64,000 nucleotides of DNA from Escherichia phage 241Ecol014PP, in sequence record OR062943.1; one strand, 5' to 3'. Below the pieces are notes generated by a model. The model was not told the DNA's origin. It did not search any database and worked only from the letters and a program-made list of their open reading frames with translations. This document shows, piece after piece, positions 2,337-18,644 of this stretch; position 1 is the first letter of the stretch, and every line of letters begins with the position of its first letter. The translations under genes and the position numbers were made by a program.

Positions 2337-2337
2337 G

Positions 2338-4935
2338 ATGCGTATTCAACATAACATTGATAACGTATTTCAGATGATTGAGGGGCACAGGAAGTGCCTC
2401 GATAACAACACAGGTATTACCAACACCCCTACACAAAATAAGCTAGTAAACCCTGATGGTCTTATAGCTGCAGGGTGGGCAGGTAATAAGATAAATAATG
2501 ATTGGGCAATGCATGAGTCCCAAGCTGTGTTGATTCTGGGATACATTGAAGCATACAGGGCATCGAAAAGCGATTTCTATCTGGATAGGGCAAAAGATGC
2601 TTGGGAAGCTTACAATAGTCATCTTCTTGGTGCATATGCTGTAGAAAGTAAAATGCAAAGATTGTCCCACTACCCTCTATCCACAGACGGGGTTCCATCA
2701 CATGGTGGGTTTAAAGATGTGGTGGTGTCTTTTACCAATGGTAGAGGAAAAATCCCAGCTGGATCTCCGACATGGGGGGAATACCTGGACAAGGCATTCC
2801 AAGCGTATAACGGTGTGTTAGGAAGAAACACTGTAGACTCTGATGTTTACGGTGGCACAGATGCTAACCCAGATTGGACAACATCCGGATTAAGTTGGTG
2901 GGTTGAGTGGTACATAGCATGGGATGGTAACCGCTATTGGGCTAACGGTAGCATAGCCGACAGTGGTCATACGTCTGTAGAGTTCGGCACAATCCAATTA
3001 CAAGATAAGGGTGTTACAGGCAGCCACAAGGTGACCTATTGTGTAAGATTACCTCAAGAGCAGGGTGGATCGGTGATACCTGCAGGATCCCCTGTAATTG
3101 TAAATCCTATAAACGTGGTTGCAGATAATCAAGCCCCGGAGTTGGACGGGGAAGAGATGTGGTGTGACGCTTGTTATCAACTCTACACCTTGACAGGTGA
3201 GGAAAAGTATTACACCGCGTTTGAACAGTCTTACAACAAGTTGCTTAATTTCAGTGATATAAACGCCTACGACAAACTGTTTAGAAAGACCACGTTGATT
3301 AAGGCACCGTTCACAGATGGTACTTGTCTTGTTGCAGGAACAGTTCCTGTCATGAGCAGGGACAGTGACGGGTATATCAATTTTAGAATGAACGCACGCC
3401 AGCCTTGCGAAATAATTCAAAAAGGGACTACATACAAAATAGGCAGAGATGCTGAAATTGTTATGAATTTCGGAGGAGAAGGTGTTCTGTTCCAGCCGCA
3501 TTTCATCCTTAATGATGGCAACAATAACAAAAAACAGTACAGGATAGGTGTCCCTTTTGGAGGTGCAGAGGTAACAGAAATAGTTGCCAAGGTTACTGAT
3601 TTCGTAGAGGTAGTTGGTAAAGACGGTAATCCGTATCTCTTACCTAAAGAGGAAAACATTGCCGTAAGCGGTGGTGCTAGTGTTAGTATGCAGTATGATA
3701 CCGACATTTACAACCACTCTGACAACTTCACCCGTTGTAATATAGCAAGAGGTAAAGTAACTTTCAATTTTGGAAGAGAGATTTCTTTAAACTCAGTAAC
3801 TTATCGATCAGATGATGAGATGGTAAGGGTCAAATTTCTTGACAAAGACAGGTGGTTATGGTATGCTGATCTATATGCCACTAATGGACAATGGATAACA
3901 GAAACTCTTACTCTAGGAGATTTCAAACTAGATCCGACACAGCCTCATCACACCGAAGAAGAGATTAAACCTTTCTTTGCTAATCCTAAGGGGCTCACCT
4001 CTGTAGATTTCAGCCTAAGCGACAGGCAGATAGGTAATGGCTTGTTTGATCTGTATTGCGTCAACACACTGCCGCAATTTTATATTGCAGATAGGGATGC
4101 TTATCTAATCTGGTTTAGCGTATGGATGGCAAGCAAGACAGAATCAACCGCTAAGGTTGGCGATTGCTATGTCAGAAACTACAAGCAAGGTGCATACAGG
4201 CACACACCCGGTGTGTTCCCTGCCGGAAAGGTGATAGATAAGGAAAACTATCTCTTGGAGGAAAGGCCAAATTGGCCCTACCCTGGCATGCAATACCCAG
4301 CAGTCTACTGCATGGGTGCAGAAAACATAGATCGCCATAGATTGTCAAATACAATAGGCTTTCTGTATGACGCTCAAGTCTGGTATAACAATACATTTAA
4401 GACAGAAGGTCCAGTTGCCTCGCGTTATGTATGGCAGAGAGGCAATGAAGGGTTGACTGGTTGGTGGGAGATGGTAGATAACTCTAAACTACAGTCAAGA
4501 TCTTTTGTTGCTGCGTGCCGCACAATATATGAGCTCAAGAAACATAAAGAACCTGTTGATGAAAGACTATTCCTGTTCTGCCAGAAATGGGCATGGTTCC
4601 TCAACAGATTCCAGTCATCTCATTCAGGAAATCTGCCTACAGACTTTAACACCTCTGGGGGATACTCTTATCAAGACAGAGGGGACAGGATGTGGGTGGT
4701 AGGTGAATGGCTTGCAGGTTGCTGCTGGCTAGGTCTGTGCGGGTATTCAGAGACAATACCTCAAATAGATATTGTTGTAGAAGCCTGTGTGAAGCTACTG
4801 CAAAAGCACCACTTCATTAATGGGGATAATATTTTAAACGGCTGCTGGGCAGTTTCTGATCCGGTTGGCTATCACTCTGGCGAAATCCTTCGCGGTCTGG
4901 GCCTTTATGCTCAATACCGTGGATTGTACCTTTAA
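2338..4935 (+). CDS. large tail-associated protein, possible glycoside hydrolase/depolymerase
   Basis: 865 aa, Trp/Tyr-rich; ATG 2 nt after upstream stop; enzymatic assignment speculative. Confidence 0.35.
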   Translation: MRIQHNIDNVFQMIEGHRKCLDNNTGITNTPTQNKLVNPDGLIAAGWAGNKINNDWAMHESQAVLILGYIEAYRASKSDFYLDRAKDAWEAYNSHLLGAYAVESKMQRLSHYPLSTDGVPSHGGFKDVVVSFTNGRGKIPAGSPTWGEYLDKAFQAYNGVLGRNTVDSDVYGGTDANPDWTTSGLSWWVEWYIAWDGNRYWANGSIADSGHTSVEFGTIQLQDKGVTGSHKVTYCVRLPQEQGGSVIPAGSPVIVNPINVVADNQAPELDGEEMWCDACYQLYTLTGEEKYYTAFEQSYNKLLNFSDINAYDKLFRKTTLIKAPFTDGTCLVAGTVPVMSRDSDGYINFRMNARQPCEIIQKGTTYKIGRDAEIVMNFGGEGVLFQPHFILNDGNNNKKQYRIGVPFGGAEVTEIVAKVTDFVEVVGKDGNPYLLPKEENIAVSGGASVSMQYDTDIYNHSDNFTRCNIARGKVTFNFGREISLNSVTYRSDDEMVRVKFLDKDRWLWYADLYATNGQWITETLTLGDFKLDPTQPHHTEEEIKPFFANPKGLTSVDFSLSDRQIGNGLFDLYCVNTLPQFYIADRDAYLIWFSVWMASKTESTAKVGDCYVRNYKQGAYRHTPGVFPAGKVIDKENYLLEERPNWPYPGMQYPAVYCMGAENIDRHRLSNTIGFLYDAQVWYNNTFKTEGPVASRYVWQRGNEGLTGWWEMVDNSKLQSRSFVAACRTIYELKKHKEPVDERLFLFCQKWAWFLNRFQSSHSGNLPTDFNTSGGYSYQDRGDRMWVVGEWLAGCCWLGLCGYSETIPQIDIVVEACVKLLQKHHFINGDNILNGCWAVSDPVGYHSGEILRGLGLYAQYRGLYL

Positions 4936-4938
4936 CAT

Positions 4939-4960
4939 AGGGGGCTGTTTGCCCCCTTTC
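4939..4960 (+). terminator. stem-loop GGGGGC-tgttt-GCCCCC with short T run; weak terminator or RNA processing hairpin
   Basis: 7-bp GC stem immediately after stop of ORF 2338-4935, followed by TTTC then RBS AGGAG of next gene. Confidence 0.3.
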
Positions 4961-4970
4961 AGGAGAAAGA

Positions 4971-7900
4971 ATGGCTGATATTAAAGTTGTCAGAATTGAA
5001 TCTCTTCCTGCCACTACCGCAGTGACAGAGGATGATTACCTGGTTGTTCAGCAACCAGACCTGACCCGTCGTGTAAAAATTGGCGATGTTGTCCATGTGG
5101 ATGGGACTGTTTCTCATGTAATCTCCTTTAAGGAAGGTGGTAAGTTAAACGGCCCAATGGATTTTGCCTACTTCGAAGAGGAAGACCTCTACCTGCGTTG
5201 GAAAGGCGAATTTCCCCACACTGTTCCTGCACTATCTTCACCGTACTCCGATGGTGGGATTACTGACGCTGCATGGATGGTATATACAGATCCGTCCTTA
5301 AGGGAGGAGCTGGAATCTACCATTGGCGCATCTATGATCATGACAGCCGAAGGGCAGTCTGTCCAGGATGTAATGGATGTTACTGTTCAGACAGCTAACG
5401 ATGCTAAAGCACTTGCACAGCGTGTAGATTTTGGTACAGTGCACACCGTAGGCGATGTTATTCACCTTGATAACTTTGTTGGCCCTGCAGTTATTGAAGA
5501 GGGAAGAACCACCAACTACCCTTCTGTAGCAGCTGGTGAAAAATTTCTGAACGGTGTGGTATCTCGCCGTGATACTACAACTGTTGATGGTATTTTCCGT
5601 GGCGCTACCACCGGAGCCATGTACACCATTGCAGTAACCAACGGTGTAGCAACAACGAAAAGAATAGCACTTCGTGATGAATTTAAACGCCTAGAGGCAA
5701 ACAACCCAACAAGAACAGTTATCCGTGCTGGAGATGATTTAAATACGGCAGGGTACTTGCAGCTTGATGCAACAGGCCGTTGGGGTATGTGGAACCAACA
5801 AACAGCTTCGTGGCAACCTCTTGCTATAGAGCAAGGCGGCACAGGGGCTAGAGATGCCGCTGGAGTCCGTATCAATATCGGTGCTTTCTATAAGCAACGT
5901 GCAGCCCTTGAGCCAAATTTCCATATCAATAACTTGACTGGTAATCAGGATGGTGTATACTACCAGCCGATGACTGCTTATGCAACTGAGGCAAATGGTT
6001 ACCCTGCAGGTTCTGGTGCTGGTCACTTGATTGTTTGGCAGAACAATGCTAACGGCGGTACAGGTTGTCGTCAGGAATACTACCCATTCTCTAACGTAGA
6101 TGTTTGGTATTTGAGAACCTATCAGGCCAACACAAATCAGTGGACTGCATGGCAGCCGATGGTTAGACCTCGTAACGATAATACCTTTAGATCGCACATC
6201 GGTCTTGGGCCTAGAAATACCCCTACCTTCGGGCACATTTACCTGTCTCAAAGTTCTGCTGATGTTAAGTCAGCCTCGGGTATTGTTAACGGGGACAAAT
6301 ACAGCGCTGACGGTGTCCTTGAGCATGGATATAGGATCTATTCTGAGGTAAGAAACGACAATAAGGCTTGGTTGACAATCCACCTGCACAAAGGTGCAAA
6401 AGGATCTGAAACTCATAAATATTTAGGTTTCCGCGAAGACGGCGTATTAGACTGCCCTAAATATATGCAGGTTGGGGATCTTACTGGTCAGCTGACAAAC
6501 TGGGGACTTGGAGAATGGATTCGTAGTTCAGGAGCAGAAAGAGGCTTCTGGGGGTCCAAGAAAGCCGCCAAGATGGTTATCTGGGATGGTGGGATGGACG
6601 AATCCGGTAACGGCACTCTGGAATGGGGTGTTTATAACAACCGGAAGGCCAAGTGGGAACCTCTACCTCAAGCCGCAGGTGGCACTGGGGCTACAACTTT
6701 AGCAGATGCTCAGAATCTGTTCAAAGTTCCTATAGCAGCAGGTGTAAAAGACTTCTTAACACTGCCAAGAACCGCAGGGATGGAAGATGGGAAATACTAC
6801 CCAATCATCGTTAGAACAGATCCGTATTACTCCCCTGCGACAGGTGCAGATATTACTATAGTCACCAGGTCTTCATATGGAGATGACCCTATGAACTGTG
6901 CCACCCTGCAGTGTCACTATAGAACTGGCGGCTGGTCGGACAGGGGAGACTCTTTCTACGGGGTAGTAAATTTCTACCAGAATGAAAAAGCACTTCTTGG
7001 GATGGTTGCTCCAACAAGGGGTAAACAAGAGTATGTTGCTTTCTATGCAGAGGCTCGTGCTTTCCCTGTCAGCATATACGCAAGTAGAAATGTTGTCGAA
7101 GTGTTTACCAGAGAGCAAGATTATCAAGTCGGCTCTGTAACAAACAATCAGGATGGGGTTAAGTTCGTTGCACCTCTTCAATCAGCAGATTTGAATCTTG
7201 CTATTCTTGGAGATAACAACACCAATACCAGACCTATTGTTGACTTCAAAGGTACTTCAGGATTCTACACTGGTGGCGGCACACAGTGGCACTATATAGG
7301 TTCTGCTGAACGCTATGCTGTGATGAGCAAAATGAATATGCCAAAAGTCGAGCTATGGGCAGACGGTCTTGACTATTTGTGCTACGGCAGTCCTAGAAAG
7401 GCGTTATTCTCTAATGCAGGATTCCAGTGTGCATCGGAAGGAACAGAGGATCTGATCAACAACACCTTTACCTCTAAATGTGGTAATGGTGCAAGACTGC
7501 AAGGCCAGGCAGAGTTCAGATCTACTCCGGAAGCTGGTCAAGTTATCGTTCGCGATGTTGTAGGTACAGCTCATAAGTTCTACAATTTCAACAAAGACGG
7601 CACATTTTTCCCTCCTGGGGGCTATGTTTGCCAGACAGGTGCTGACTGGAACAATCAGTTTGGTAATACAAACCCCTCCAAGATAATGGCTGGCAATGTC
7701 AACGGGCCGGAAGGTTCGATGGTTGTTGGCGGGGTGTCTGTAGCATTTTCTGGGAACTATGCTTTCCAAATGGCTGGCCGCCTTGATCAGTTATACACCA
7801 GATCTATCGAGGGTGGTAACCATAGAGCGTGGAACAAGGTCATACAACACAGAGGGCAAGGTCTGGGGATTAATGACCTTAACGACTACAAAGGGGATAG

Positions 7901-8771
7901 GGAAGGTTTTTATCATCAGGAGGCCAATGCTCAAGCCACACCCGATAGAAACTACCCATGCTCCCGGGCAGGTACGCTTATCGTGTACAGGAACTACGCC
8001 AATGTTCCAGAGAGTTGCGTACAGGAGTATATATCATATCTTGGGGAAAAATTCCTGCGTTATGGAACAACAATAGGTAGTGTTTTCACATGGGGACCTT
8101 GGCAGCAGCTTGGTGGTAAGGGAATTACTCTTAAAACCGCAGGTTCCAATCTTGACCCAGAGTTCATGATACATACAGGTGGTGGGACCGATGTTACCAA
8201 CACTTCCAACATGCCTTCTAATACAGGCAGAATGTACTACTGGGGTAATGGCGCAGACAGGAAGAACGTGCTTGAGTTTCAGATAAACGACAACGCTACA
8301 TCTGCCAGTTGGGTATGGCATTGTGGTGCTAAGACAGATGAGGCCAAGTCAAGGTACTTTGCTGTCAACGGCGTAGTAGAGTGCACCGCTGTCAGCCAGA
8401 GCTCTGACCGTGACCTGAAGGATAACATAGAGGTTATTCCTAACGCGTTGGAAGCTATCCGTAAGATGAAAGGCTATACCTACACTCTAAAAGAGAATGG
8501 TATGCCTCACGCGGGGGTAATTGCTCAAGAGGTTATGGAAGCATTACCTGAAGCGGTTGGTTCTTTCGTGAAAAGGAAAGAGGTTCCTGGTCCTACTCAA
8601 GATGGTATTCCTCTGATGACCGAGGAAAGATTCTATAATGTTGACTATGCGGCTGTAACAGGATTGCTTGTTCAGGTTTGCAGAGAACAAGATGATAAAA
8701 TAACCGCCCTTGAGGAGCAGGTTAAAAAATTGACAGAGGTTGTTACTGGGTTGCAAGAGAAACTGAAGTAA
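4971..8771 (+). CDS. long tail fibre protein with C-terminal peptidase-S74-type intramolecular chaperone domain
   Basis: 1266 aa; RBS AGGAG; N-terminal anchor shared with ORF 1668; C-terminus SSDRDLKDNIEVIP...YTYTLKENG...AQEVMEALPEAV...LEEQVKKL matches autoproteolytic chaperone domain of endosialidase/T5 pb1-type fibres. Confidence 0.8.
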   Translation: MADIKVVRIESLPATTAVTEDDYLVVQQPDLTRRVKIGDVVHVDGTVSHVISFKEGGKLNGPMDFAYFEEEDLYLRWKGEFPHTVPALSSPYSDGGITDAAWMVYTDPSLREELESTIGASMIMTAEGQSVQDVMDVTVQTANDAKALAQRVDFGTVHTVGDVIHLDNFVGPAVIEEGRTTNYPSVAAGEKFLNGVVSRRDTTTVDGIFRGATTGAMYTIAVTNGVATTKRIALRDEFKRLEANNPTRTVIRAGDDLNTAGYLQLDATGRWGMWNQQTASWQPLAIEQGGTGARDAAGVRINIGAFYKQRAALEPNFHINNLTGNQDGVYYQPMTAYATEANGYPAGSGAGHLIVWQNNANGGTGCRQEYYPFSNVDVWYLRTYQANTNQWTAWQPMVRPRNDNTFRSHIGLGPRNTPTFGHIYLSQSSADVKSASGIVNGDKYSADGVLEHGYRIYSEVRNDNKAWLTIHLHKGAKGSETHKYLGFREDGVLDCPKYMQVGDLTGQLTNWGLGEWIRSSGAERGFWGSKKAAKMVIWDGGMDESGNGTLEWGVYNNRKAKWEPLPQAAGGTGATTLADAQNLFKVPIAAGVKDFLTLPRTAGMEDGKYYPIIVRTDPYYSPATGADITIVTRSSYGDDPMNCATLQCHYRTGGWSDRGDSFYGVVNFYQNEKALLGMVAPTRGKQEYVAFYAEARAFPVSIYASRNVVEVFTREQDYQVGSVTNNQDGVKFVAPLQSADLNLAILGDNNTNTRPIVDFKGTSGFYTGGGTQWHYIGSAERYAVMSKMNMPKVELWADGLDYLCYGSPRKALFSNAGFQCASEGTEDLINNTFTSKCGNGARLQGQAEFRSTPEAGQVIVRDVVGTAHKFYNFNKDGTFFPPGGYVCQTGADWNNQFGNTNPSKIMAGNVNGPEGSMVVGGVSVAFSGNYAFQMAGRLDQLYTRSIEGGNHRAWNKVIQHRGQGLGINDLNDYKGDREGFYHQEANAQATPDRNYPCSRAGTLIVYRNYANVPESCVQEYISYLGEKFLRYGTTIGSVFTWGPWQQLGGKGITLKTAGSNLDPEFMIHTGGGTDVTNTSNMPSNTGRMYYWGNGADRKNVLEFQINDNATSASWVWHCGAKTDEAKSRYFAVNGVVECTAVSQSSDRDLKDNIEVIPNALEAIRKMKGYTYTLKENGMPHAGVIAQEVMEALPEAVGSFVKRKEVPGPTQDGIPLMTEERFYNVDYAAVTGLLVQVCREQDDKITALEEQVKKLTEVVTGLQEKLK
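8394..8768 (+). other. intramolecular chaperone (S74-like) domain of the tail fibre
   Basis: Conserved S-D-x-D-x-K motif block and C-terminal coiled coil within ORF 4971-8771. Confidence 0.65.
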
Positions 8772-8778
8772 CTGTTTT

Positions 8779-8806
8779 GCCCTCGCTTCGGCGGGGGCTT
8801 TTTGTT
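8779..8806 (+). terminator. rho-independent terminator (UUCG tetraloop hairpin + T tract)
   Basis: GCCCTCGC-ttcg-GCGGGGGC followed by TTTTTGTTTG, 8 nt after stop of fibre gene. Confidence 0.7.
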
Positions 8807-8810
8807 TGTA

Positions 8811-8839
8811 TTGCGTATTAACTCAAAATCTGGTAAAAT
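8811..8839 (+). promoter_or_regulatory. sigma70-like promoter TTGCGT-N17-TAAAAT with TGn extended -10
   Basis: TTGCGT 8811-8816, 17-nt spacer ending in TGG, TAAAAT 8834-8839; sits between terminator and ORF 8871. Confidence 0.5.
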
Positions 8840-8870
8840 AGCTATCATGATTGTTTAACCTGGAGGCACA

Positions 8871-9461
8871 ATGTTTTTATGGGAAAGGCCTAGATACCTT
8901 CCAGATATCAGATTGGAGCTGCTGGCAGATATTGTTACGTTTAAAAGTCCGTTTACAGGTAAAACGCAAAAAGTAACCTATGCCACACCTAACTGGAAAG
9001 GCACTTTGACGGTTTCCAATATCAGCGAGTCACAGTTGCTAGAGCTTAAGAGCTTTGTTGATCAGGTGTATAAAGATGGAAACATCTTTCTTATTAAAAC
9101 TTACGGTCACTCAGTAACAGCTAATGAGCCAATCGCCCTTGGGCCTACTGGTAACGACGATTTTTTGAAGACGGTTGGGTGGGAGCCAAACAGAGACATA
9201 GCCAGAGCTGGGGATAAAATATCTGTCAATGATGAATTGAAAGTGGTAACAGCTCCAGTGCGTAGCGATGGTGTTGGGTCTGCTGTTATAAGCATATCTC
9301 CAAGACTTAGAAAACCTATTGCCGCAGGGGACACTATGAAGATAATAACTCAATCCCCGAAGGGTAGGTTTCATATCAGAGATATTTATAAAATTAAGCA
9401 AAAAGTCGATGCTATGCAAAAAGGTGATAATATAGTTATCAACTTCTTTGAGGATTTCTAA
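8871..9461 (+). CDS. minor tail protein (lambda gpM-like N-terminal region)
   Basis: 196 aa; RBS TGGAGG; segment WKGTLTVSNISESQLLELKSFVDQ resembles lambda M from memory. Confidence 0.35.
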   Translation: MFLWERPRYLPDIRLELLADIVTFKSPFTGKTQKVTYATPNWKGTLTVSNISESQLLELKSFVDQVYKDGNIFLIKTYGHSVTANEPIALGPTGNDDFLKTVGWEPNRDIARAGDKISVNDELKVVTAPVRSDGVGSAVISISPRLRKPIAAGDTMKIITQSPKGRFHIRDIYKIKQKVDAMQKGDNIVINFFEDF

Positions 9462-9462
9462 G

Positions 9463-10014
9463 ATGATCAGAGCGCCATTAGATAATTTATTTCTTGAAAA
9501 GCTGGAGCTTGATGGTGTTGAGATCTTAATTGCTGCAAAGCTGGAGCTACCGACAGGAACTGTCAGGGTGTGCTCAGGCACTGGTGTTGTAGTAATTGAG
9601 GGGCAACATTTTATAGGGATAGGTGGATCAGCAACGTTAACTGCTGTGTCTGAGAAAGATGCCACCAACTTCGGATCTGTGGTAGCGACATTGAACGGGT
9701 TTGATCCTAAGTATGTGGGTGATCTTCTGAAGACGGAGTATTCTGGTTGTCGTGCCGCGTTGTACATTACCGCTATGGAGAATGGCTTGCCTGTTACAAC
9801 TAATGGCTTGTTTGACGGACTTATAACAGATATGGCTATTCAGACAGGTGAGAATAGTGCTTTGTCCATATCAATCTCTTCCATCTTCAACAGTTGGTTA
9901 AGAGGTTTTCCTTATCGGTACACGGAGGAAAGTCACAGCTCAAGAAACGATAATGACAGATTTTTTAAATATGTGGATCAGGTGGCGAGCCGCCCGATCA
10001 TTTGGGAGGTTTAA
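9463..10014 (+). CDS. minor tail protein, function unknown
   Basis: ORF-track start 9448 is TTG; ATG at 9463 lies 1 nt after upstream stop; 183 aa; position between gpM-like and gpK-like genes. Confidence 0.4.
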   Translation: MIRAPLDNLFLEKLELDGVEILIAAKLELPTGTVRVCSGTGVVVIEGQHFIGIGGSATLTAVSEKDATNFGSVVATLNGFDPKYVGDLLKTEYSGCRAALYITAMENGLPVTTNGLFDGLITDMAIQTGENSALSISISSIFNSWLRGFPYRYTEESHSSRNDNDRFFKYVDQVASRPIIWEV

Positions 10015-10439
10015 TGAGCACACATCCTCGTCTAGTGGACTGGCAAGAAAGATTGTGGAAAGTATTTGACGAAGAGGCCACCATACCTTTTGAATGGGGA
10101 TTTCACGATTGTTGCACCTTTGCAGCCAAGTGTGTTGATGCCCAATACGGAACAGATTTTCTTTCTAACTTCGAAGGAACGTATAAAACAGAGTTGGAAA
10201 GCAAAAGATGGTGCATGCTTCATTTCAAAACCACACACCTGCCTACTATTTTTGATTTCTTTATGACTCGACTGGATACTCCTAAACAGGTTCAGCGTGG
10301 AGATATTGTCATTTTCGAAGGTCTGAACGGGCTCACCGCTGGTGTGTTCTGGAACAACCAGATTTGGGCTAAAGGTGATAAAGGGGTCTTTATGTTCGAC
10401 ATGAAAGATTCTATCGTTGTTGATGTCTGGAGGTATTAA
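10014..10439 (+). CDS. gpK-like NlpC/P60-fold tail protein
   Basis: ATG 10014 overlaps upstream stop (TAATG), RBS GGGAGG; FHDCCTF (Cys motif) and QRGDIVIF blocks align with lambda K C-terminal domain; second catalytic His not evident. Confidence 0.5.
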   Translation: MSTHPRLVDWQERLWKVFDEEATIPFEWGFHDCCTFAAKCVDAQYGTDFLSNFEGTYKTELESKRWCMLHFKTTHLPTIFDFFMTRLDTPKQVQRGDIVIFEGLNGLTAGVFWNNQIWAKGDKGVFMFDMKDSIVVDVWRY

Positions 10440-13400
10440 TGCCAATTGCAATGATTGATAACATCGTTGCTTCTGCAAGATCTTCAAGTTATGACTGGAA
10501 CGCATCCAAGGCAGCTCTGGCTGACAGCCTGAACACTGTTACCACCAGAACTCTGGATAAGATTTTTGAGGGCAACAAATCTTACAGAAGTCAGCAAGAT
10601 AGACAAAAGCTTCTCAGATCTTCTGCTGCACCTTGCTCTGTAGTGTATGGGAAGACACGCACATCCGGATTGCTTGCGTTTTTGGAGCAGGATAGCGACA
10701 GAACCCTCCATTGTGCTATTGTTCTTGCTAATCATCCTCTGGAAGGTATAGAAGACATACTCATCGACGGTAATCCTATTTCCTCGTATGGAGATCTGGT
10801 ATCGTGGGAGCTACATAACGACAGAAAAACATCTGATCCTTTCATGGGTACACACTGCCCATCATGGTCACCTGACATGATAGGTAGAGGGATTAGTTGG
10901 CTACGTGCCAGTTTCAAGTTTGACCCTAACAAGTTTCCTTTTGGGTTGCCAAACGTTACACTCGTTAAGGTTGGTAAAAAATGCTATGATCCTCGTATCA
11001 GTAAAGAGGTGTACACCAATAACGCAGCCTTGGTGATCCTAGACTATTTAAGAACGTACCTTAAATGTCCTGACGAAACCATCAACTGGGAGTCCTTTAA
11101 GGAGGCTGCCAACATATGCGACGAAGCGGTAAAAAACGCTGACGGAACCAGTGAGCGACGTTACACCATTAACGGTGAGTTCGACATGGATGAGGCTCCA
11201 GCAAGTATTATGGCAGAAATGTTGAAAGCTTGTGGTGCAGATCTCAGTTATGTAGCTGGTAAGTATGGTTTGCTGGTTGGTGCATACTATGGCCCGGCAA
11301 CAATGACACTGAGTGAGGACTGTGTCTGCGGTGAGGTCAAGATCTATCCGGAAGCCTCGTTTGACAAAAGATCCAACACAATAACTGGCAGATTCACTAG
11401 TCCGACCAAAGGGTATTCTGAAACAGATTTTCCATCAGTGTTTGTCCCAGAGTGGATAGAGAAGGATGGAGAAAGAAAGATAATCGATATAGACTATCGC
11501 TTTGTTACCAGCCCTTATCAAGCTCAGCGTGTTTCTGCAATCTTCTTAAGACGTGCTAGAGCTGGCAGGATTATTGAAGTCACCTGCAATATGCGAGGTT
11601 TTAAATTTAAGCCTGGTCGTTATGTTACAATGGACCTCCCAAGTATTGGTATAGTGGGCCAAGAAATGAGGGTTCTTGAATGGGAGTTCACCAAAAAGGG
11701 CGGTGTCAAGGTAAAACTTCGTCAAGATGCTAAAGAGTGGAATGATGCCACAGGGCAACTTCCGGATTCCGGTGATGTAGATATTCCGATATCCCCGTCC
11801 GGTGTAGCTCAGCCGCAAAACTTCAGATACTCCGTTCTCCAAGCTGGGGAAGTAACTCACGGTGTTTTGGCTTGGGACAACGTTGGGACTTACGCTCAAA
11901 ATATTGTGCAAGTAAGAAAGAACGGAGAGATTGTTTGGACAGCACAGACAGTTGAGCAGTTTGTCAGAGTAGAAGGTTTGACCAAAGGGTCATACACAGC
12001 AACCGTGGTTGCAACATCTTATAAAGGTGGTGTATCTCCAGAAGCGTACTGTGAGTTTAACATTCAGGCACCTGAAGCTCCGGTTTCTGTAGAGGTTAAG
12101 CAAGGATACTTTGCTATCACCTTGATTCCGCATAGTAGGGATTTAGCAAGTGTTAGCACCCAGTATGACTTTTGGACATCTGGTATGACAAGGTTGCCCG
12201 ACACCAGTGATGCAACCGTTACTTCAAACGCCACCCGTATGGGTGTTGGTTCAACTTGGACATCTGAAGGCCTGCAGAACGATAAGGTTTATTATTGGTA
12301 TATTCGAACCACAAACGCTTTTGGTAGTTCTCAGTTTGTAGAATGCGCTGCACGTTGCTACACCTCTATTGAGGATTTGATGCCTCAGATAGATGCTGAA
12401 TTCAAAAAGACAGAAACTTATAAAGAGTTGATGAGCACTTTGGATTCCTCTATTGAAGAGGTTGAAAATCGTGTCACAGAACTTAACAGGTACATGGATG
12501 GTAGGGTAGATGAAGCGTTCCAGCAACTTGGGGACAGAATAGGTGCGGTAGTTACAGAAACAACTCAGAAGTTTGAAGATGTCAATGGTAACATTACAGC
12601 GCTGGATAGGAAACTTGTTGCTGCACAGAACAAGTTCACCAACGATCTGAACACTGAAAGTGGAAGATTGGCATCCCTGATTGAGACAACCAATAAAGCA
12701 ACTACTGATCTTCTGAACAAAAAGACAGAGGCTTTAGATGAGAAATTGGTTGCCGCCAAAGGTGAGCTGGTAGAGCAGATAGAGGGAGTTGAGAGCGGGT
12801 ATTTAGCCGGAGATAAAACTCTGGATGGTAAGATCAATACCCAGAGAACAGAACTTGACGCAAGCATCTTGAGCACTAACCAGGCCACTGTGGATCTTTT
12901 GAACAGGACATCTGAAACTCTGGATCAAAAGATCAGTCAGACAAACGCGACGGTATCTAAAAACTATACCACCCTGGATGGCAAGATAACCACCGCAAAA
13001 ACTGACCTCAACACCTTGATTGCCAATACCAACAAGACCACCACTGACTTGTTGAATCAGAAAACATCTGCACTGTCAGAGCAAATAACTTCTGCACGTG
13101 GGGAGATCTCTACCAACAAGCAAGCGATTGATGCTTTGGATGGAAAACTGACCTCCACAAAAACAGCGCTGGATGCTACAATTTCCGATACCAACAAGGC
13201 CACTGTGGACCTTATCAACGGCACAGCGTCAGCTATTCGTCAAGAACTTGCTGTTGCTAAGCAGGAGATCATTGATGATGTTGGAGATGTGTCCGAGATC
13301 AGGGCTGCAGTAGCTACAACATCTAAGGCTGTGACCGACTTAGAGGGTAAAGTAAATGCTCAGTGGGGCACAAAAATACAGGTAGACTCCGCAGGGAATA

Positions 13401-14278
13401 AATATGTTGCAGGTATCCAGTTGGGGATGGAAGGGTCTGGGGGCCAAGTTCAATCCTACTTCATGGTTAGTGCAAACAATTTTGCGGTATACAACCCCGG
13501 CAATGGAACAGCAACCCTTGCTTTCGCAATCAAGAACAACCAAGCATTCTTGAAAGACGCTTTTATAGAGAATGGCACGATCTCCTCTGCCAAGATCGCA
13601 CAAGAAATTTCGTCAAACAACTACGATGGCAACGGGTACCATAAATACGGTTGGTATATTAACAAGAACGGGCACGCCCAATTTATGGATGTGTGGGTGA
13701 AAGGCAACATCAACGCTAGTTCTGGTAACTTCACAGGGGCAGTTAACGCCACTAGTGGTACCTTCCGTGGAGATGTTTATGCCAATAATGGTAGCTTCAG
13801 GGGCACCATAGATGCAACCGGAGGTACCTTCCGTGGGCGTGTAGAAGCTTCTGTTATTCGTGCCAACCAGTTTGAAGGTGCAATTGTTGCACACAGGACT
13901 TACGGGGATTGTGCACCAGTATACAACTCCCGGCAGAGGGTTTGCCGTTGGAGGTGGAGATACGTAGATAACGTTTCAGGTCAGGGTAAGAACGTAACAT
14001 TCTTCTTTAAACTGAACGGTACTCGTGCCAACTCCCAACTAAATGCGTGGATAGCTGGTCATCAACTCCTTGCTGGCAAGAAGTACGGAAACGACAACGA
14101 TGGCATGTGTGCAGTTGGGATAACAGGTCTAGGTGAACAAACTATAGACATTATTATTGAAATCTACACCCCGTGGTCAACGTCAAACGTGACAGGTATT
14201 ACAATATCCTGTCCTACTGTGGTTGTTAGTCGTTCTAACTCCAGCTTCCAGGGACCTTGGAACGAGTCTCACGACTAA
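10439..14278 (+). CDS. lambda gpJ-like tip attachment / central tail fibre protein with inserted coiled-coil repeat stalk
   Basis: 1279 aa; blocks QGYFAITLIPH, YYWYIRTTNAFGSSQFVE, KYVAGIQLGMEG...NNFAVYNPGNG...NNQAFLKDAFI match lambda J from memory; FN3-like region; C-terminal GxFxG repeats. Confidence 0.75.
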   Translation: MPIAMIDNIVASARSSSYDWNASKAALADSLNTVTTRTLDKIFEGNKSYRSQQDRQKLLRSSAAPCSVVYGKTRTSGLLAFLEQDSDRTLHCAIVLANHPLEGIEDILIDGNPISSYGDLVSWELHNDRKTSDPFMGTHCPSWSPDMIGRGISWLRASFKFDPNKFPFGLPNVTLVKVGKKCYDPRISKEVYTNNAALVILDYLRTYLKCPDETINWESFKEAANICDEAVKNADGTSERRYTINGEFDMDEAPASIMAEMLKACGADLSYVAGKYGLLVGAYYGPATMTLSEDCVCGEVKIYPEASFDKRSNTITGRFTSPTKGYSETDFPSVFVPEWIEKDGERKIIDIDYRFVTSPYQAQRVSAIFLRRARAGRIIEVTCNMRGFKFKPGRYVTMDLPSIGIVGQEMRVLEWEFTKKGGVKVKLRQDAKEWNDATGQLPDSGDVDIPISPSGVAQPQNFRYSVLQAGEVTHGVLAWDNVGTYAQNIVQVRKNGEIVWTAQTVEQFVRVEGLTKGSYTATVVATSYKGGVSPEAYCEFNIQAPEAPVSVEVKQGYFAITLIPHSRDLASVSTQYDFWTSGMTRLPDTSDATVTSNATRMGVGSTWTSEGLQNDKVYYWYIRTTNAFGSSQFVECAARCYTSIEDLMPQIDAEFKKTETYKELMSTLDSSIEEVENRVTELNRYMDGRVDEAFQQLGDRIGAVVTETTQKFEDVNGNITALDRKLVAAQNKFTNDLNTESGRLASLIETTNKATTDLLNKKTEALDEKLVAAKGELVEQIEGVESGYLAGDKTLDGKINTQRTELDASILSTNQATVDLLNRTSETLDQKISQTNATVSKNYTTLDGKITTAKTDLNTLIANTNKTTTDLLNQKTSALSEQITSARGEISTNKQAIDALDGKLTSTKTALDATISDTNKATVDLINGTASAIRQELAVAKQEIIDDVGDVSEIRAAVATTSKAVTDLEGKVNAQWGTKIQVDSAGNKYVAGIQLGMEGSGGQVQSYFMVSANNFAVYNPGNGTATLAFAIKNNQAFLKDAFIENGTISSAKIAQEISSNNYDGNGYHKYGWYINKNGHAQFMDVWVKGNINASSGNFTGAVNATSGTFRGDVYANNGSFRGTIDATGGTFRGRVEASVIRANQFEGAIVAHRTYGDCAPVYNSRQRVCRWRWRYVDNVSGQGKNVTFFFKLNGTRANSQLNAWIAGHQLLAGKKYGNDNDGMCAVGITGLGEQTIDIIIEIYTPWSTSNVTGITISCPTVVVSRSNSSFQGPWNESHD
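12600..13290 (+). repeat. in-frame tandem repeats (~45-aa heptad-like units, 4-5 copies) inside the gpJ-like gene
   Basis: Repeated peptide units L(D/N)x(L/I)IxxTNKxTTDLLNxKTxxL...; corresponding nucleotide repeats are visibly similar. Confidence 0.6.
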
Positions 14279-14286
14279 CCTTTAAA

Positions 14287-14312
14287 GCCCCGCTTCGGCG
14301 GGGTTTATTTTT
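14287..14312 (+). terminator. rho-independent terminator (UUCG tetraloop)
   Basis: CCCCGC-ttcg-GCGGGG followed by TTTATTTTTAT, 9 nt after stop at 14278. Confidence 0.7.
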
Positions 14313-14321
14313 ATGCTCAGA

Positions 14322-14350
14322 TTGACTATTGTTACAAAATTTGGTAAAAT
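14322..14350 (+). promoter_or_regulatory. sigma70-like promoter TTGACT-N17-TAAAAT with TGn extended -10
   Basis: TTGACT 14322-14327, spacer 17 ending TGG, TAAAAT 14345-14350; upstream of ORF 14384. Confidence 0.5.
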
Positions 14351-14383
14351 ACCTTGTAGAGATTTTCATACCGGAGGAGTGAC

Positions 14384-15874
14384 GTGGCTAAGTATGGATT
14401 GACAGAGGCTGGTTTCGTTATACCAACCCTAAATGACCTAATCGTTGAAACTAAGCAAAGCCTGATCCGTGCTTTTGGCGAAAACTTCAACGTACAGAGT
14501 AACTCCGTTGCAGATAAGCTGACCACTATCTTCAACGAGCGAGAGTATCAACTTATTCTTATGGCAGCATCTGTATACGCATCACAGACGCTGTATGGGG
14601 CAGAAGGTATTTACCTAGATGAGCTTCTTGGAAGACAGGGTATTTACCGAAGAGGCCGTTCTAAATCATCAGGTACCTGCCAGTTGACAATCAACACAAC
14701 TGTGCCGTACAATATGATTTATGATTCCAAAACTTATACGCTGGACAGTGGCAACTTTGTTCTTAGTAATGATGTGCAAGTAGCAGGGAATCTTATTGCT
14801 CACAGAATAAATGCTCCAGACCTAAGGATTGGGAAATACAACTTCCAAATTACCAACCAAACAGACGGAAGTATCAAAACAAAAAGCCTGGTTTTAACAG
14901 ATAAGTCTCTGGACTCTTCTGATTTGCCAAGCTTTTACGGAGAGATTAAGCAATTCATTGTCGATAATACAACCCTGTTGAACGACGATTTGATTCAGAT
15001 CGATATGTTGACAGGAACGTTGTGGATAGGGTACAATTCGAATCTTGATCAAGTTGGGCTTAACAGCAGGGTAGATTTCAGAGTATCCCCGATTGTAGGG
15101 GAAAGAACTATCACACTGGATGTTATCGCTAACGAGGCTGGTGAGCTGTCAAGAGAGGCAGAAACCGTGACAACAATGTCACCTACTCCCAGTGGATTCA
15201 TCAAGCTTACCAACCGAGAAAGATTCAATGAGGGCAGGGATGTTGAGAAAGACTCAGAGTATCGCTTAAGAGCTTCCAGCACAAAACAGTTAACATCTAA
15301 GGCTACCCGTCCTGCAATCCTTAGCGCTGTAAGCGAGGTGAAAGGTGTTGAGAAAGTGAGAGTGTTCTCCAACAACACCGATAAAACTGATGCTAAAGGT
15401 ATACCTCCTTACAAGTTCCAAGTGGTTGTGTTTGGTGGTGCAACGGAGGACATTTGCCAAGCACTTTACCAAACTATAGCCTGTACGAACAGGACTTATG
15501 GTAATATTTTCTACGATGTAACTACATCTGACGGTCAAACTGAAAGAATTTATTACTCCAAGGCAAATACCTACCGCCTAGATGTAAGAATTACCTACTC
15601 CGGTGCCGCACTTTCCACAACAGAAAAAGATGCCATTGTAGAGGCTCTTTTGCAGGTTGTTAACGGACTGGATGTTGCAGATACGTTGTATAATATCCAA
15701 TTGGTCGGTGCTGCATCTGCTGCTGTGTCAATAGGCAGATTTAATAGACTGGTAATTCAAGTTAAGCCAGTAGGAGCTTCTGATGAAGCTTACACTACAA
15801 ACGATATTGTTGCGAACATGACCGAGGTGTTTGACCTCGACGAAAGTAATATAACTTTCCAACAAACTATTTAA
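14384..15874 (+). CDS. baseplate J-like protein
   Basis: 496 aa; GTG start with RBS GGAGGAG; N-terminal block ...YGAEGIYLDELLGRQGIYRRG... resembles P2 gpJ/baseplate_J from memory; gene order J-I-(x)-H-G-like. Confidence 0.45.
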   Translation: MAKYGLTEAGFVIPTLNDLIVETKQSLIRAFGENFNVQSNSVADKLTTIFNEREYQLILMAASVYASQTLYGAEGIYLDELLGRQGIYRRGRSKSSGTCQLTINTTVPYNMIYDSKTYTLDSGNFVLSNDVQVAGNLIAHRINAPDLRIGKYNFQITNQTDGSIKTKSLVLTDKSLDSSDLPSFYGEIKQFIVDNTTLLNDDLIQIDMLTGTLWIGYNSNLDQVGLNSRVDFRVSPIVGERTITLDVIANEAGELSREAETVTTMSPTPSGFIKLTNRERFNEGRDVEKDSEYRLRASSTKQLTSKATRPAILSAVSEVKGVEKVRVFSNNTDKTDAKGIPPYKFQVVVFGGATEDICQALYQTIACTNRTYGNIFYDVTTSDGQTERIYYSKANTYRLDVRITYSGAALSTTEKDAIVEALLQVVNGLDVADTLYNIQLVGAASAAVSIGRFNRLVIQVKPVGASDEAYTTNDIVANMTEVFDLDESNITFQQTI

Positions 15875-15885
15875 GGCGGCGAGAT

Positions 15886-16572
15886 ATGGCAGAGATTAAG
15901 TCGGATGTTAACCACATCCACACTCTGCCAGATTTTGTTCAGGGGGGTCTTGACTACCTACCTGGAGATTTTCTGGCTGAGAAGGTTAATTTAGTCACAT
16001 TCTTAACCGTATACCTTAAAAGGTTGGAGGATGTTGATAAGATGCTGGTAGGTTTGGCTGAAGGAAGATTGCTTAACAATGCCAGCGGAAGATACCTTGA
16101 CGAAGTTGGTAATCAACTTGGTATTCTTAGGAATGGACTTTCAGATGCTGATTTTCGTGCCACACTAATTATTCAGCAGGCCGCAGCATCAAGGGGCGGG
16201 ACTCGCGAAGATGTCATCTCCACCTTGCGACAATTGTTCGGAAGAGACAATTTCGATACGTGGAAAGGAGACAACTTCAGGTTTGACATAAATATTAGAA
16301 AAACTTGCTTTGACATATTGCAGTCTATCGATCAGATCTTAGATATGCTACCATTGCCTTGTCATTTGCGTCTTACAGAATCGCAAGGGCAAGCTTTTGG
16401 TTTTGAAGGGGACTCTACAGCTCTGGGCTTCGGATCAGTGTGGGAAGAAAACCAATTCGGAGTTGGTGGGCTGGCTACTTTGCTGTATGTTCCTGACGTA
16501 AGACCTGATTGGGACACCACAACCATTTATTGTGAAAGTATTACAGTAAACGCAACTAGACAGGAGGGTTAA
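15886..16572 (+). CDS. baseplate/tail protein (possible gpI/DUF2313-like)
   Basis: 228 aa; RBS GGCGGCGAG region; position directly after J-like gene; weak motif similarity only. Confidence 0.3.
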   Translation: MAEIKSDVNHIHTLPDFVQGGLDYLPGDFLAEKVNLVTFLTVYLKRLEDVDKMLVGLAEGRLLNNASGRYLDEVGNQLGILRNGLSDADFRATLIIQQAAASRGGTREDVISTLRQLFGRDNFDTWKGDNFRFDINIRKTCFDILQSIDQILDMLPLPCHLRLTESQGQAFGFEGDSTALGFGSVWEENQFGVGGLATLLYVPDVRPDWDTTTIYCESITVNATRQEG

Positions 16573-18644
16573 TGGCAACAGCTGTTTTTAAACCTTACCG
16601 TGATTACTCTACAATGGCTGCACAGTTTCATTACCGAACAGTTCAGGATACTGCCGTTCCTGGTAGAGATTATAATCATGTTGAGGGCGATGTAACTATC
16701 CCAATTGGGGCAACCAGTATTGAGATCCCCGTGGAAATTGTTGACAAATTACCCAACAGGTTGCCAAGAAGCTTCTTTATGGAGTTTTCATCAAAATCTC
16801 AAGGGGTAATGATTGGAACACAAAGGGCGAAATGTACAATAGTTTCAGATGAGAATCTCGACAGGATATCTTGGGATACTGTTGAGGAGAGAATGTTCCA
16901 CCCAAGATATTGGGTTACAACTACTCAGCAGACTGAAAGTACCTGTATTGTTGCAGATAACAACTGTTGTATTAACCGTTTAGTGTCAAGAACATATGGA
17001 GGTATGGCTGGGTGCATTTGGGAAACAGTTGACAAGTATGACCATTTCGGCATTGGGTTTGATGATCATTATGAGATGAGAAACACCAAGCTATGGTTCA
17101 GAATGTCAATAACCAACGCCAGCAACTTCTCCACTCCTGAAAAGATGATTATGACTGTAGACCTTGTTGATGGCACAATCATCTATGTTCCTTTAGCTCA
17201 ATATGCTGTCAGCATCTCAGAGGATAAGAATGTTGCAGAAATTCATATTGATTTTGAGGACTGCGTCGGGATGGACCAGAACAACAACATGATGGGTGTT
17301 GATCCTCGGCAGGTGAGAAGGATTTTAATACCACTTATGCCTAAAGACTGGGTAAGTAACAGCACAGACCCGAGAACGGAAAACGTAGAGTGTGAGTTGC
17401 GCCTAGATCTGCTTCAGCCAGACACAGGCTGGAAAATGATGCAACTTAATAATATCCAGGTGAAAGAACACGACGTTGGAATCTGCACAGCATATGACGA
17501 TATGTGGAACGTATCCCCTTTAAGGGTGTTGAACAATATCAAACGTCTGGGCTATACCGGAACCATAAACCATTATGTTGGTATGAGTCATTATTATGAC
17601 TACACATGGTCAGGAACCCAATGGTCTATAAACAAAACAGGAGCGCTAAACGCTGCAGCTTATAAATGGCATGATGATTTTATGTACAATGCCAAACGAC
17701 ATAACTTCGACGTTATGCAATCTGTAAGTTTTGAGCTTTTCAGTGATGCCTGCCCGTTGGAATGGACCCAAAGAGACTGGAACGATAACTACGCTAAAAC
17801 AGGGTATACACCTTGTAGTTACCTCCTGTCTCCAACCATTGAAGAGGGTATGAATTTTCTTACTGCAGTATTTAAGAATTTTGCATCAGCCGCTATGAGA
17901 AACAATCTGCCAGTGATTATGCAGGTTGGTGAACCATGGTGGTGGTACAATACCGATACTCGTAGACCTTGTATTTATGATTACCCTACAAAGCAGGCGT
18001 TTTATGATGAGACAGGTGAGTATGCATTAGATATTGGGACTATTGACGATCCTAAAACTGGCGGTGTTTACGATAAGTATGTAGCATTTTGTCGTGGTAA
18101 GCTTGGCGCTCGTATTGCAGCTATTTCAAAGGCAATAAAGGCACACGCTGCATCAGCTCAGATGACAGCTTTGCTGTTTTTCCCAACCATCATGGAAACC
18201 GAGCTTACACAAAAGCTGAACCTTGCTGACCAATATAAAAAGGAAGCAGGTGCTCTTGATTTCTTCTGTACCGAGTGCTACGATTGGGTGATGCAGGGAG
18301 GTATTGAAAAGGCAAAAGAGTCTGTAAACATACCTATCGTTAAGTTAGGCTGGCAACCGTCTGAAATACAATACCTTGCAGGGTTCGTTCCTAGTAAAGA
18401 GCTTGCTCCGGTATATGGCTACGACCCAACTAGGAATTACCAAGAATTTTTATGGAGATGTATTTGCGGAAACATGGCAACTATAGAGTATAGATACCCT
18501 GAGGTAAAACAGTATGTGTGGGCATACCCGCAAGTAATGTCTGACAGCATCACTGTTACCGCTAGAGATTCTACCGTGCTTCATATGGGGCAGGTTGCTC
18601 TGAAAGGGTATGTAGAAGATGTTGTCCCGCCAGACTTCTCATAA
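16572..18644 (+). CDS. structural protein with N-terminal Calx-beta-like domain, possible tail-associated hydrolase
   Basis: 690 aa; N-terminus TAVPGRDYNHVEGDVTIPIGATSIEIPVEIVDK...CTIVSDENLD fits Calx-beta pattern; remainder Trp-rich. Confidence 0.35.
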   Translation: MATAVFKPYRDYSTMAAQFHYRTVQDTAVPGRDYNHVEGDVTIPIGATSIEIPVEIVDKLPNRLPRSFFMEFSSKSQGVMIGTQRAKCTIVSDENLDRISWDTVEERMFHPRYWVTTTQQTESTCIVADNNCCINRLVSRTYGGMAGCIWETVDKYDHFGIGFDDHYEMRNTKLWFRMSITNASNFSTPEKMIMTVDLVDGTIIYVPLAQYAVSISEDKNVAEIHIDFEDCVGMDQNNNMMGVDPRQVRRILIPLMPKDWVSNSTDPRTENVECELRLDLLQPDTGWKMMQLNNIQVKEHDVGICTAYDDMWNVSPLRVLNNIKRLGYTGTINHYVGMSHYYDYTWSGTQWSINKTGALNAAAYKWHDDFMYNAKRHNFDVMQSVSFELFSDACPLEWTQRDWNDNYAKTGYTPCSYLLSPTIEEGMNFLTAVFKNFASAAMRNNLPVIMQVGEPWWWYNTDTRRPCIYDYPTKQAFYDETGEYALDIGTIDDPKTGGVYDKYVAFCRGKLGARIAAISKAIKAHAASAQMTALLFFPTIMETELTQKLNLADQYKKEAGALDFFCTECYDWVMQGGIEKAKESVNIPIVKLGWQPSEIQYLAGFVPSKELAPVYGYDPTRNYQEFLWRCICGNMATIEYRYPEVKQYVWAYPQVMSDSITVTARDSTVLHMGQVALKGYVEDVVPPDFS

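Follow-up and report, generated by a model that had tools for sequence, protein, structure and literature searches.

The Vequintavirinae are broad-host-range phages that have been studied for therapy and biocontrol. One of their fibre genes is related by sequence to gene J of phage lambda, and we refer to it here as the J-like gene. In this study, we analyzed the J-like gene located at 10439-14278 (+ strand) in a 64,000-nucleotide (nt) stretch of Escherichia phage 241Ecol014PP (record OR062943.1; the whole stretch is called the window below), which is an rV5-like myovirus of the genus Vequintavirus. The product of this gene in rV5, gp37, is a 1279-amino-acid (aa) protein assigned to COG4733 that was found in the virion proteome, and electron microscopy of rV5 virions occasionally reveals thin 70-nm fibres (PMC3606486). 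Strong allelic variation of the J-like gene was reported with the BASEL phages, and the assignment of genes to fibres in the Vequintavirinae remains unsettled (PMC8594841). Transposon mapping in phage Bas54 (MaxBurger) showed that two fibre genes, the J-like gene (bas54_0031) and a distal-tail-protein-like gene (bas54_0028; both locus tags are taken from the Bas54 genome annotation), are among the fibre genes that are dispensable on E. coli K-12 (10.1101/2025.11.20.689424). Among structure-based classes of fibres, RBPseg class TC5 has a beta-sandwich N-terminus of the central-fibre type, a large coiled coil and, at the C-terminus, a beta helix; it has a member from the Vequintavirinae, and classes TC3/4/9 are J-like needles with coiled coils of varying length (PMC12143355).

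Our analysis of the window indicates that its J-like protein is probably an accessory Vequintavirus fibre in which the neck of lambda J has been expanded into a modular, length-variable coiled-coil stalk.

A J-like fibre protein with an expanded neck

Positions 10439-14278 (+) form an exact open reading frame (ORF) of 1279 aa, and the encoded protein is 100% identical to the deposited "tail fiber" of Escherichia phage 241Ecol014PP. Nucleotide matches to the gene were found in 116 phage records at 90-99% identity, with Escherichia phage RudolfGeigy at the top (96.8%); identity to Vequintavirus genomes is 96-97%. Judged by sequence, the gene is the ortholog of rV5 gp37 and of bas54_0031, and its product is a known tail-fibre protein; in the BASEL phages the ortholog is annotated as "lateral tail fiber protein with fibronectin type III domain". 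We also noted 18 "Campylobacter phage" records (GenBank MG065646-MG065682) that are approximately 96% identical to E. coli rV5-like phages across the J-like gene; most of these give Campylobacter jejuni as the host, a label that looks doubtful. The gene and the regions of its product, including immunoglobulin (Ig)-like and fibronectin type III (FN3)-like domains, are as follows:

10439..14278, +, J-like fibre gene (ORF; identity to 241Ecol014PP; PHROG 31, E 4e-164; rV5 gp37 ortholog)
10439..11914, +, N-terminal hub-type region, aa 1-492 (T5 pb3 match, PHROG 31, identity to phage 9g J)
11915..12394, +, two Ig/FN3-like domains, aa 493-652 (Pfam; alignment to lambda J 666-844)
12347..13366, +, predicted alpha-helical stalk, aa 637-976 (AlphaFold2; 3.65-residue periodicity; weak coiled-coil similarities)
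13307..13729, +, Phage_Tail_Tip domain PF09327 (formerly DUF1983), aa 957-1097 (Pfam E 1e-38; lambda J 842-991)
13723..13855, +, four tandem 11-aa units SGxFxGxVxAx, beta-helix-type, in the distal fibre (33-nt period, 71% nt identity)
13856..14275, +, C-terminal domain, aa ~1140-1279 (91-97% nt identity in all allele classes)

The match to PHROG 31, "central tail fiber J", spans aa 143-1135. Within the hub-type region, aa 243-472 match residues 526-752 of the T5 baseplate hub protein pb3 (E 3e-4, by sequence comparison), and aa 48-758 are 49% identical to the central tail fibre J of phage 9g; the Pfam scan of the J-like protein gave no match to Phage-tail_3. As in other J-family proteins, the hub-type region is followed by two consecutive Ig/FN3 domains, the first matching Ig_J at aa 493-545 (E 2.5e-5, slightly under the cutoff) and the second matching Ig_J_second at aa 547-652 (E 1e-30), and PF09327 scores 132 bits with a cutoff of 22. 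The first helix of the PF09327 domain is a degenerate sixth copy of the repeat unit described below (TSKAVTDLEGKVNAQW). The four 11-aa units that follow (SGNFTGAVNAT, SGTFRGDVYAN, NGSFRGTIDAT and GGTFRGRVEAS) are probably turns of a distal beta-helix.

Together with the alignment to lambda gpJ structures, these matches bear out the J-like identity proposed in an earlier note on this DNA. The same note called it a lambda J-like tip protein, and as to the tip this proposal did not hold. The J-like protein belongs to J as a sequence family and is functionally not equivalent to a lambda-style tail tip, because the phage is a myovirus with its own hub and spike and because bas54_0031 tolerates transposon insertions; nor is it a single essential tip that closes a non-contractile tube and is encoded downstream of the tape-measure gene.

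A phmmer search of the PDB placed aa 497-678 on lambda J 666-844 and aa 955-1116 on lambda J 842-991 (E 1.6e-28). Since these two blocks abut at a single point of lambda J, the approximately 275 aa between them (aa 679-954; nt ~12475-13300) have no counterpart in lambda J, in agreement with the earlier proposal that the array is an insertion. At this point lambda J has a short three-helix bundle that joins its FNIII-2 domain to the central-fibre domain (PMC10721106).

Five helical repeat units form the predicted stalk

A run of four to five tandem copies of a helical unit of about 45 aa had been proposed for this region, and we find both the units and their coordinates to be correct. A hidden Markov model (HMM) of the unit detects five significant units in the window protein, with independent E-values (i-E) from 9e-8 to 4e-22. 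The motif TN[KQ]xT[TV]DL begins at aa 751, 813, 864 and 918, with degenerate starts at approximately aa 706 and 961, which gives spacings of 45, 62, 51, 54 and 43 aa between motif starts. The core unit is 44 aa long, and internal insertions of 7, 10 and 18 aa produce the units of 51, 54 and 62 aa. Protein identity between units is 23-50%, and a BLOSUM62 autocorrelation of the protein has peaks at lags of 105, 113 and 51 that lie above 200 of 200 shuffles. The five units are:

12554..12688, +, repeat unit 1, aa 706-750, 45 aa, start motif degenerate (HMM aa 715-750, i-E 5.5e-8)
12689..12874, +, repeat unit 2, aa 751-812, 62 aa (HMM i-E 1e-17; the 18-aa insert holds the predicted helix break)
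12875..13027, +, repeat unit 3, aa 813-863, 51 aa (HMM i-E 9e-8)
13028..13189, +, repeat unit 4, aa 864-917, 54 aa (HMM i-E 3e-15)
13190..13318, +, repeat unit 5, aa 918-960, 43 aa (HMM i-E 4e-22)

When the five-unit profile was searched against 1.84 billion representative proteins, the only strong matches were members of the Vequintavirus J-like family, and the weaker ones were generic trimeric coiled coils, mostly autotransporter stalks. The unit is therefore not part of a wider repeat family, as the search strongly recovers the J-like family alone.

Structure prediction and sequence periodicity both support the coiled-coil character proposed for the units. AlphaFold2 predicts a helix at aa 637-976 that is continuous except for a single 4-residue break at aa 788-791, with a predicted local distance difference test (pLDDT) score of approximately 70-86. 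The hydrophobic periodicity of this region is 3.65 residues (power 2.53, above 300 of 300 shuffles), next to the hendecad value of 11/3 = 3.67 residues, and the 44-aa core unit corresponds to 4 x 11 residues. The stalk contains one proline in 330 residues and is rich in threonine, asparagine, leucine and alanine. Among solved structures, the closest in sequence is the P22-type tail needle gp26, through its trimeric coiled coil (4lin; E 3e-4, a weak match), and there is weak similarity to YadA_stalk proteins as well. The stalk is probably a trimeric coiled coil of the hendecad type. Because J proteins are trimeric and lambda J has a three-helix bundle at the homologous position, we infer that the coiled coil is three-stranded and nearly straight. 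An alpha-helix rises approximately 1.5 Å per residue, and on this geometry the stalk would be about 50 nm long.

Stalk alleles in Vequintavirus genomes

The best 120 matches to the J-like protein in a large protein collection are all 1279-1280 aa long (120/120, 99% identity), and a tblastn search of phage genomes identified a second group that is approximately 83% identical and of other lengths. Repeat number among relatives, raised by the earlier note as a check on copy-number change, thus gave a divided result: alleles with 3, 4, 5 or 7 units exist, but the 120 closest relatives do not differ in length, and there is no ongoing copy-number flux among them because all are of 1279-1280 aa. Based on approximately 115 Vequintavirus genomes, and taking the significant unit-HMM matches as the unit count, we distinguish three discrete allele classes (the helical region is measured from the end of FN3 to AQWG):

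4-unit class: 1199 aa; 253-aa helical region; phiWec193, LL12, HeinrichReichert; ~43 records
5-unit class (window type): 1279 aa; 333-aa helical region; rV5, RudolfGeigy, MaxBurger; ~57 records
7-unit class: 1381 aa; 435-aa helical region; VB-EcoM-WM, BP9, ECP32; ~13 records

All length differences between the classes fall inside the stalk, and the 7-unit allele has two additional 44-aa units that are perfectly in register. Outside the stalk the DNA of the J-like gene is 93-100% identical between classes, and at ~12270-13400 identity drops to 49-62% in comparison to the 4-unit class and to 58-86% in comparison to the 7-unit class. No part of the gene other than the stalk diverges between allele classes, and the C-terminal tip is conserved. 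Within each class there is little change: the 4-unit allele is at least 99% identical across all ~43 carriers, and the stalk of the window-type class shows 25-30 synonymous versus 1-2 non-synonymous changes, i.e., a ratio of non-synonymous to synonymous substitution rates (dN/dS) of 0.01-0.02, as low as in the hub domains.

In Escherichia phage V18 (NC_041937, locus positions 2501-5244) the J-like gene is split into ORFs of 691 aa and 178 aa and lacks the stalk entirely, along with most of the tail-tip domain, either as a deletion mutant or through poor assembly. We did not accept V18 as a clean stalk-less natural variant, as its J-like gene is split and other fibre genes in the record are fragmented.

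A siphovirus-type tail-tip module in the fibre locus

The J-like gene is the last of a four-gene unit that encodes distal-tail-protein-like, gpL-like, DUF6950 and J-like proteins. Our annotation of this unit and its flanks is as follows:

8779..8798, +, intrinsic-terminator-like hairpin and T run at the upstream module boundary
8831..8840, +, match to the rV5 late-promoter motif (TGGTAAAATA), upstream of the module
8871..9461, +, distal-tail-protein-like gene, 196 aa, first in the module (PHROG 1302, E 2e-50; 31% identical to the 9g distal tail protein)
9463..10014, +, tail protein, gpL/hub-domain-I-like, 183 aa (PHROG 2048, E 4e-67; 39% identical to 9g gp66)
10014..10439, +, DUF6950 protein, 141 aa, in the gpK position (Pfam PF22262, E 4.5e-33; 44% identical to 9g gp67)
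14285..14306, +, intrinsic-terminator-like hairpin and T run directly 3' of the J-like gene
14342..14351, second copy of TGGTAAAATA, after the second terminator and upstream of the gene that follows the module

The rV5 late-promoter motif is TggTAaAAtA (PMC3606486). Genes 2, 3 and 4 of the module are connected by TAATG overlaps, and the start of the gpL-like gene is the ATG at 9463, in agreement with annotated relatives. Each of the four proteins has a homolog encoded among the tail-tip genes of siphovirus 9g (31, 39, 44 and 49% identity), where the genes are arranged in the same order, and this order of distal-tail, gpL-like and gpK-position genes followed by J is that of the J family; similarity to tail genes of siphovirus PY54 was already recorded in the original rV5 annotation. 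From gene content and flanking signals, 8779-14306 is a complete siphovirus-type tail-tip gene set, arranged as its own transcription unit in a myovirus fibre locus. The phage has its own myovirus sheath, hub, spike and wedge genes, and the module lies apart from the tape-measure gene. GC content is 42-47% throughout and gives no sign of a recent foreign origin.

The tail locus of the related phage phi92 contains the wedge genes and an N4-gp65-like fibre, and homologs of the four module genes are absent from it; the phi92 cryo-electron microscopy (cryo-EM) paper (PMC13450770) therefore cannot place the J-like fibre. In the window, a 690-aa protein encoded at 16572-18644 combines N4 gp65 non-contractile tail sheath N-terminal and TIM-barrel domains (PF23844, PF23845) with Calx-beta, and is 42% identical to phi92 gp142; this is the fibre tied in the literature to ECA/NGR glycan recognition. 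Antisense ORFs of 87-157 aa inside the K-like and J-like genes (10032-10505, 12565-12888 and 13340-13894, - strand) are mechanical and have no supporting evidence.

Proposed origin and role of the stalk

We consider it likely that the J-like protein is an accessory fibre that follows the J/pb3 layout: hub domains come first, then two Ig/FN3 domains and a helical neck, next PF09327 together with the beta-helix repeats, and last a C-terminal knob. Ancient tandem duplication of a 44-residue unit made up of four hendecads would have lengthened the neck, and later insertions of 7, 10 and 18 residues would have altered the unit lengths, resulting in a helix of approximately 340 residues. As a homotrimer, the protein may form a near-straight three-stranded coiled coil that keeps the conserved distal tip off the baseplate, with predicted stalks of about 39, 50 and 66 nm for the 4-, 5- and 7-unit cassettes. 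Cassettes are probably swapped by homologous recombination in the near-identical flanks, and rare microhomology-mediated deletions may take out whole units. The 70-nm fibres of rV5 are compatible with a stalk of this length plus the distal domains, and one may speculate that they are the same structure.

Several points weigh against this interpretation. Nothing ties stalk length to host range or adsorption. The AlphaFold2 model is a single-sequence, monomeric prediction with a predicted template modelling (pTM) score of 0.24, so that the extended three-stranded geometry goes beyond the model itself. Cryo-EM of two Vequintavirus phages did not find the J-like fibre (PMC12143355). The C-terminal 163 aa have no sequence match in the PDB that would point to a ligand of the conserved tip. 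Finally, the strong purifying selection on the stalk is unexpected for a mere spacer, and the stalk surface may do something more.

A more far-reaching version, which we regard as possible but rather doubtful, holds that 8871-14278 is a siphovirus tail-tip complex that was captured by a myovirus and reused as a dispensable lateral fibre, and that the cassettes of approximately 39, 50 and 66 nm tune the reach of the tip through surface glycans of differing thickness. Stalk length, and not tip sequence, would then be the host-range variable, and the reuse would explain both the ~70-nm fibres of rV5 and one of the Vequintavirus fibres that lack an assignment.

Alternative explanations

The J-like stalk could be a dynamic, contingency-like repeat. 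Copies would then often be gained and lost through homologous recombination or slippage, driven by the nucleotide similarity of the units, and fibre length would differ within populations as a result. The earlier note had pointed in this direction by proposing that repetition at the DNA level would allow copy-number change. Copy number does vary between genomes, and a nucleotide autocorrelation of the array has peaks at 153 and 315 nt that beat codon shuffles (2 of 500 reach them); this residual periodicity is the part of the claim that stands. Tandem Repeats Finder, run on 10000-15000, found nothing in the stalk, and a search for nucleotide repeats returned three copies of 67 nt with 61-70% identity. 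Identity between units is 56-68%, below what is seen in a high-identity recombinogenic tandem repeat, and the longest exact repeat is 13 nt in the window stalk and 13-14 nt in the stalk of any allele. At positions where the amino acid is identical, units share codons in 42% of cases versus 39% expected, i.e., synonymous sites are randomised. Because codon sharing is near expectation, the periodicity stems from protein conservation, and because the units have diverged, exact matches are short and codons are randomised, we conclude that the duplications are old and that the DNA is a poor substrate for ordinary homologous recombination, contrary to what had been proposed.

One genome of approximately 115 shows a recent change in copy number. 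In E. coli O157 typing phage 14 (KP869112, locus positions 2002-5526), the J-like protein is a 1174-aa version of the window-type allele that lacks exactly units 3 and 4; the loss is 315 nt (105 aa), in frame, and its junction lies inside the sole 13-nt exact repeat of the stalk:

12882..12894, +, 13-nt direct repeat AGGCCACTGTGGA, copy 1 (left breakpoint of the typing-phage-14 deletion)
13197..13209, +, 13-nt direct repeat AGGCCACTGTGGA, copy 2, 315 nt downstream (right breakpoint)

Since a repeat of 13 nt would not be long enough to collapse in k-mer assembly, we take this as a real deletion, which the junction suggests was microhomology-mediated. An in-register loss of two units between direct repeats is what a dynamic repeat would produce. 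However, it is a single case set against 120 of 120 close relatives of constant length and a 4-unit allele that hardly varies among 43 records, and the length classes are old. Copy number does change, if rarely, and old, discrete cassettes make up the common polymorphism; frequent gain and loss is thus an unlikely account of the stalk.

Just as improbable, in our judgement, is a docking platform, where the helical array would mainly bind another fibre, an adhesin or a chaperone in a branched fibre, and the alleles would match different partners. This would fit the low dN/dS within classes, which persists despite large differences between classes, and the many fibres of the Vequintavirinae, whose order of attachment is unresolved (PMC8594841, PMC12143355). 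A partner should co-vary with the stalk, and we compared the 30-kb fibre locus of 10 genomes that represent all three allele classes. The only variable blocks in this locus are 6000-8700, 12300-13500 (the stalk) and 24000-29400; the three blocks assort independently, and no segment co-varies with the stalk allele in this search, which was confined to the locus. The BASEL paper points to allelic variability in the same three fibre genes (PMC8594841, legend to S5C). Block 6000-8700 covers the C-terminal two thirds of a 1266-aa fibre gene (4971-8771) that ends in an S74-type chaperone, and block 24000-29400 covers much of a 1878-aa Ig-like fibre gene (23837-29473); both are mosaic among close relatives, with identities of 67% to 100% and some segments without a match.

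A lipid- or membrane-binding array of apolipoprotein-like amphipathic 11-mer helices, in place of a rigid stalk, is very improbable: the 11/3 periodicity is common to apolipoprotein-type repeats and there are weak, sub-threshold Pfam Apolipoprotein matches (ApoLp-III was matched by the truncated 4-unit ortholog P0122 only), but these lie far under the gathering cutoffs, the segment sits where trimeric lambda J has a three-helix bundle (PMC10721106), the closest analogues by sequence are trimeric coiled coils, and a Thr/Asn-rich composition is typical of polar-core trimeric stalks. It is equally hard to credit that the stalk is neutral filler, a linker free of constraint whose sequence and length drift without any effect on function, given that the within-class dN/dS contradicts the idea and that the reading frame and the 3.65-residue periodicity are kept throughout, even if no other part of the gene diverges as much between classes as the stalk and the gene is dispensable on K-12 (10.1101/2025.11.20.689424).

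Significance for Vequintavirus fibres

These findings show that one of the three variable fibre genes varies solely in the length and sequence of its stalk, with the tip conserved, and correct the assumption that allelic variation of the J-like gene marks a variable receptor-binding end. BASEL phages with different alleles are predicted to differ in fibre length by approximately 12-15 nm, and the 44-aa units and conserved flanks would offer natural in-register cut points for the engineering of fibre length. The gain is incremental, as earlier publications cover the gene, its coiled coil and its allelic variation; the point of interest is the role of a siphovirus tip module with a length-variable stalk on a myovirus baseplate.

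Comparison with known systems

The closest described proteins, rV5 gp37, bas54_0031 (MaxBurger) and bas52_0030 (RudolfGeigy), are 1279 aa long, 98.6-99% identical to the window protein and encoded at the same position of the fibre locus, and nothing material differs. The gene, a large coiled coil and allelic variation are thus already published. The names under which the ortholog has appeared, "tail fiber" or "lateral tail fiber protein with FN3 domain", come with no description of repeat units or unit-number alleles, and we found no account in the literature of the hendecad unit of 44 aa, of the series of alleles with 3, 4, 5 and 7 units, of a variation that stays within the stalk and spares the conserved tip, or of the microhomology deletion. 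The RBPseg classes are predicted structures and contain no repeat anatomy, allele classes or DNA-level history; the Vequintavirinae member of TC5 would be the J-like gene.

The P22 gp26 needle and the YadA_stalk adhesins are trimeric rods with a polar core and motifs such as ALDGRVTT and TLDGKITT, and resemble the stalk by motif and composition, but the rest of these proteins is not homologous with the J-like protein, and the matches (E 3e-4) have high bias. Rod length varies among the homologs of both the gp26 needle and the YadA stalks.

Lambda gpJ (PDB 8iyk, 8xcg and related entries) shares with the J-like protein the succession of Ig/FN3 domains, helical neck, PF09327 and beta-helix repeats, but in the latter approximately 340 helical residues take the place of the short three-helix bundle. 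In addition, lambda gpJ serves a siphovirus as its single, essential tail tip and binds LamB via an unrelated C-terminal domain, whereas the J-like protein belongs to a myovirus and is dispensable on K-12. Nearest outside Vequintavirus are the J proteins of the Queuovirinae (9g gp68 and Seuratvirus KS_S4), with 45-53% aa identity over aa 48-1124 and with three preceding genes that are homologous to those of the window module and arranged like them. The helical neck of these J proteins measures only approximately 100 aa and contains no significant 44-aa unit, and their C-terminal domains are unlike that of the window protein. The Queuovirinae module, located after the tape-measure gene, is a true tail tip, whereas the module in the window is not so placed.

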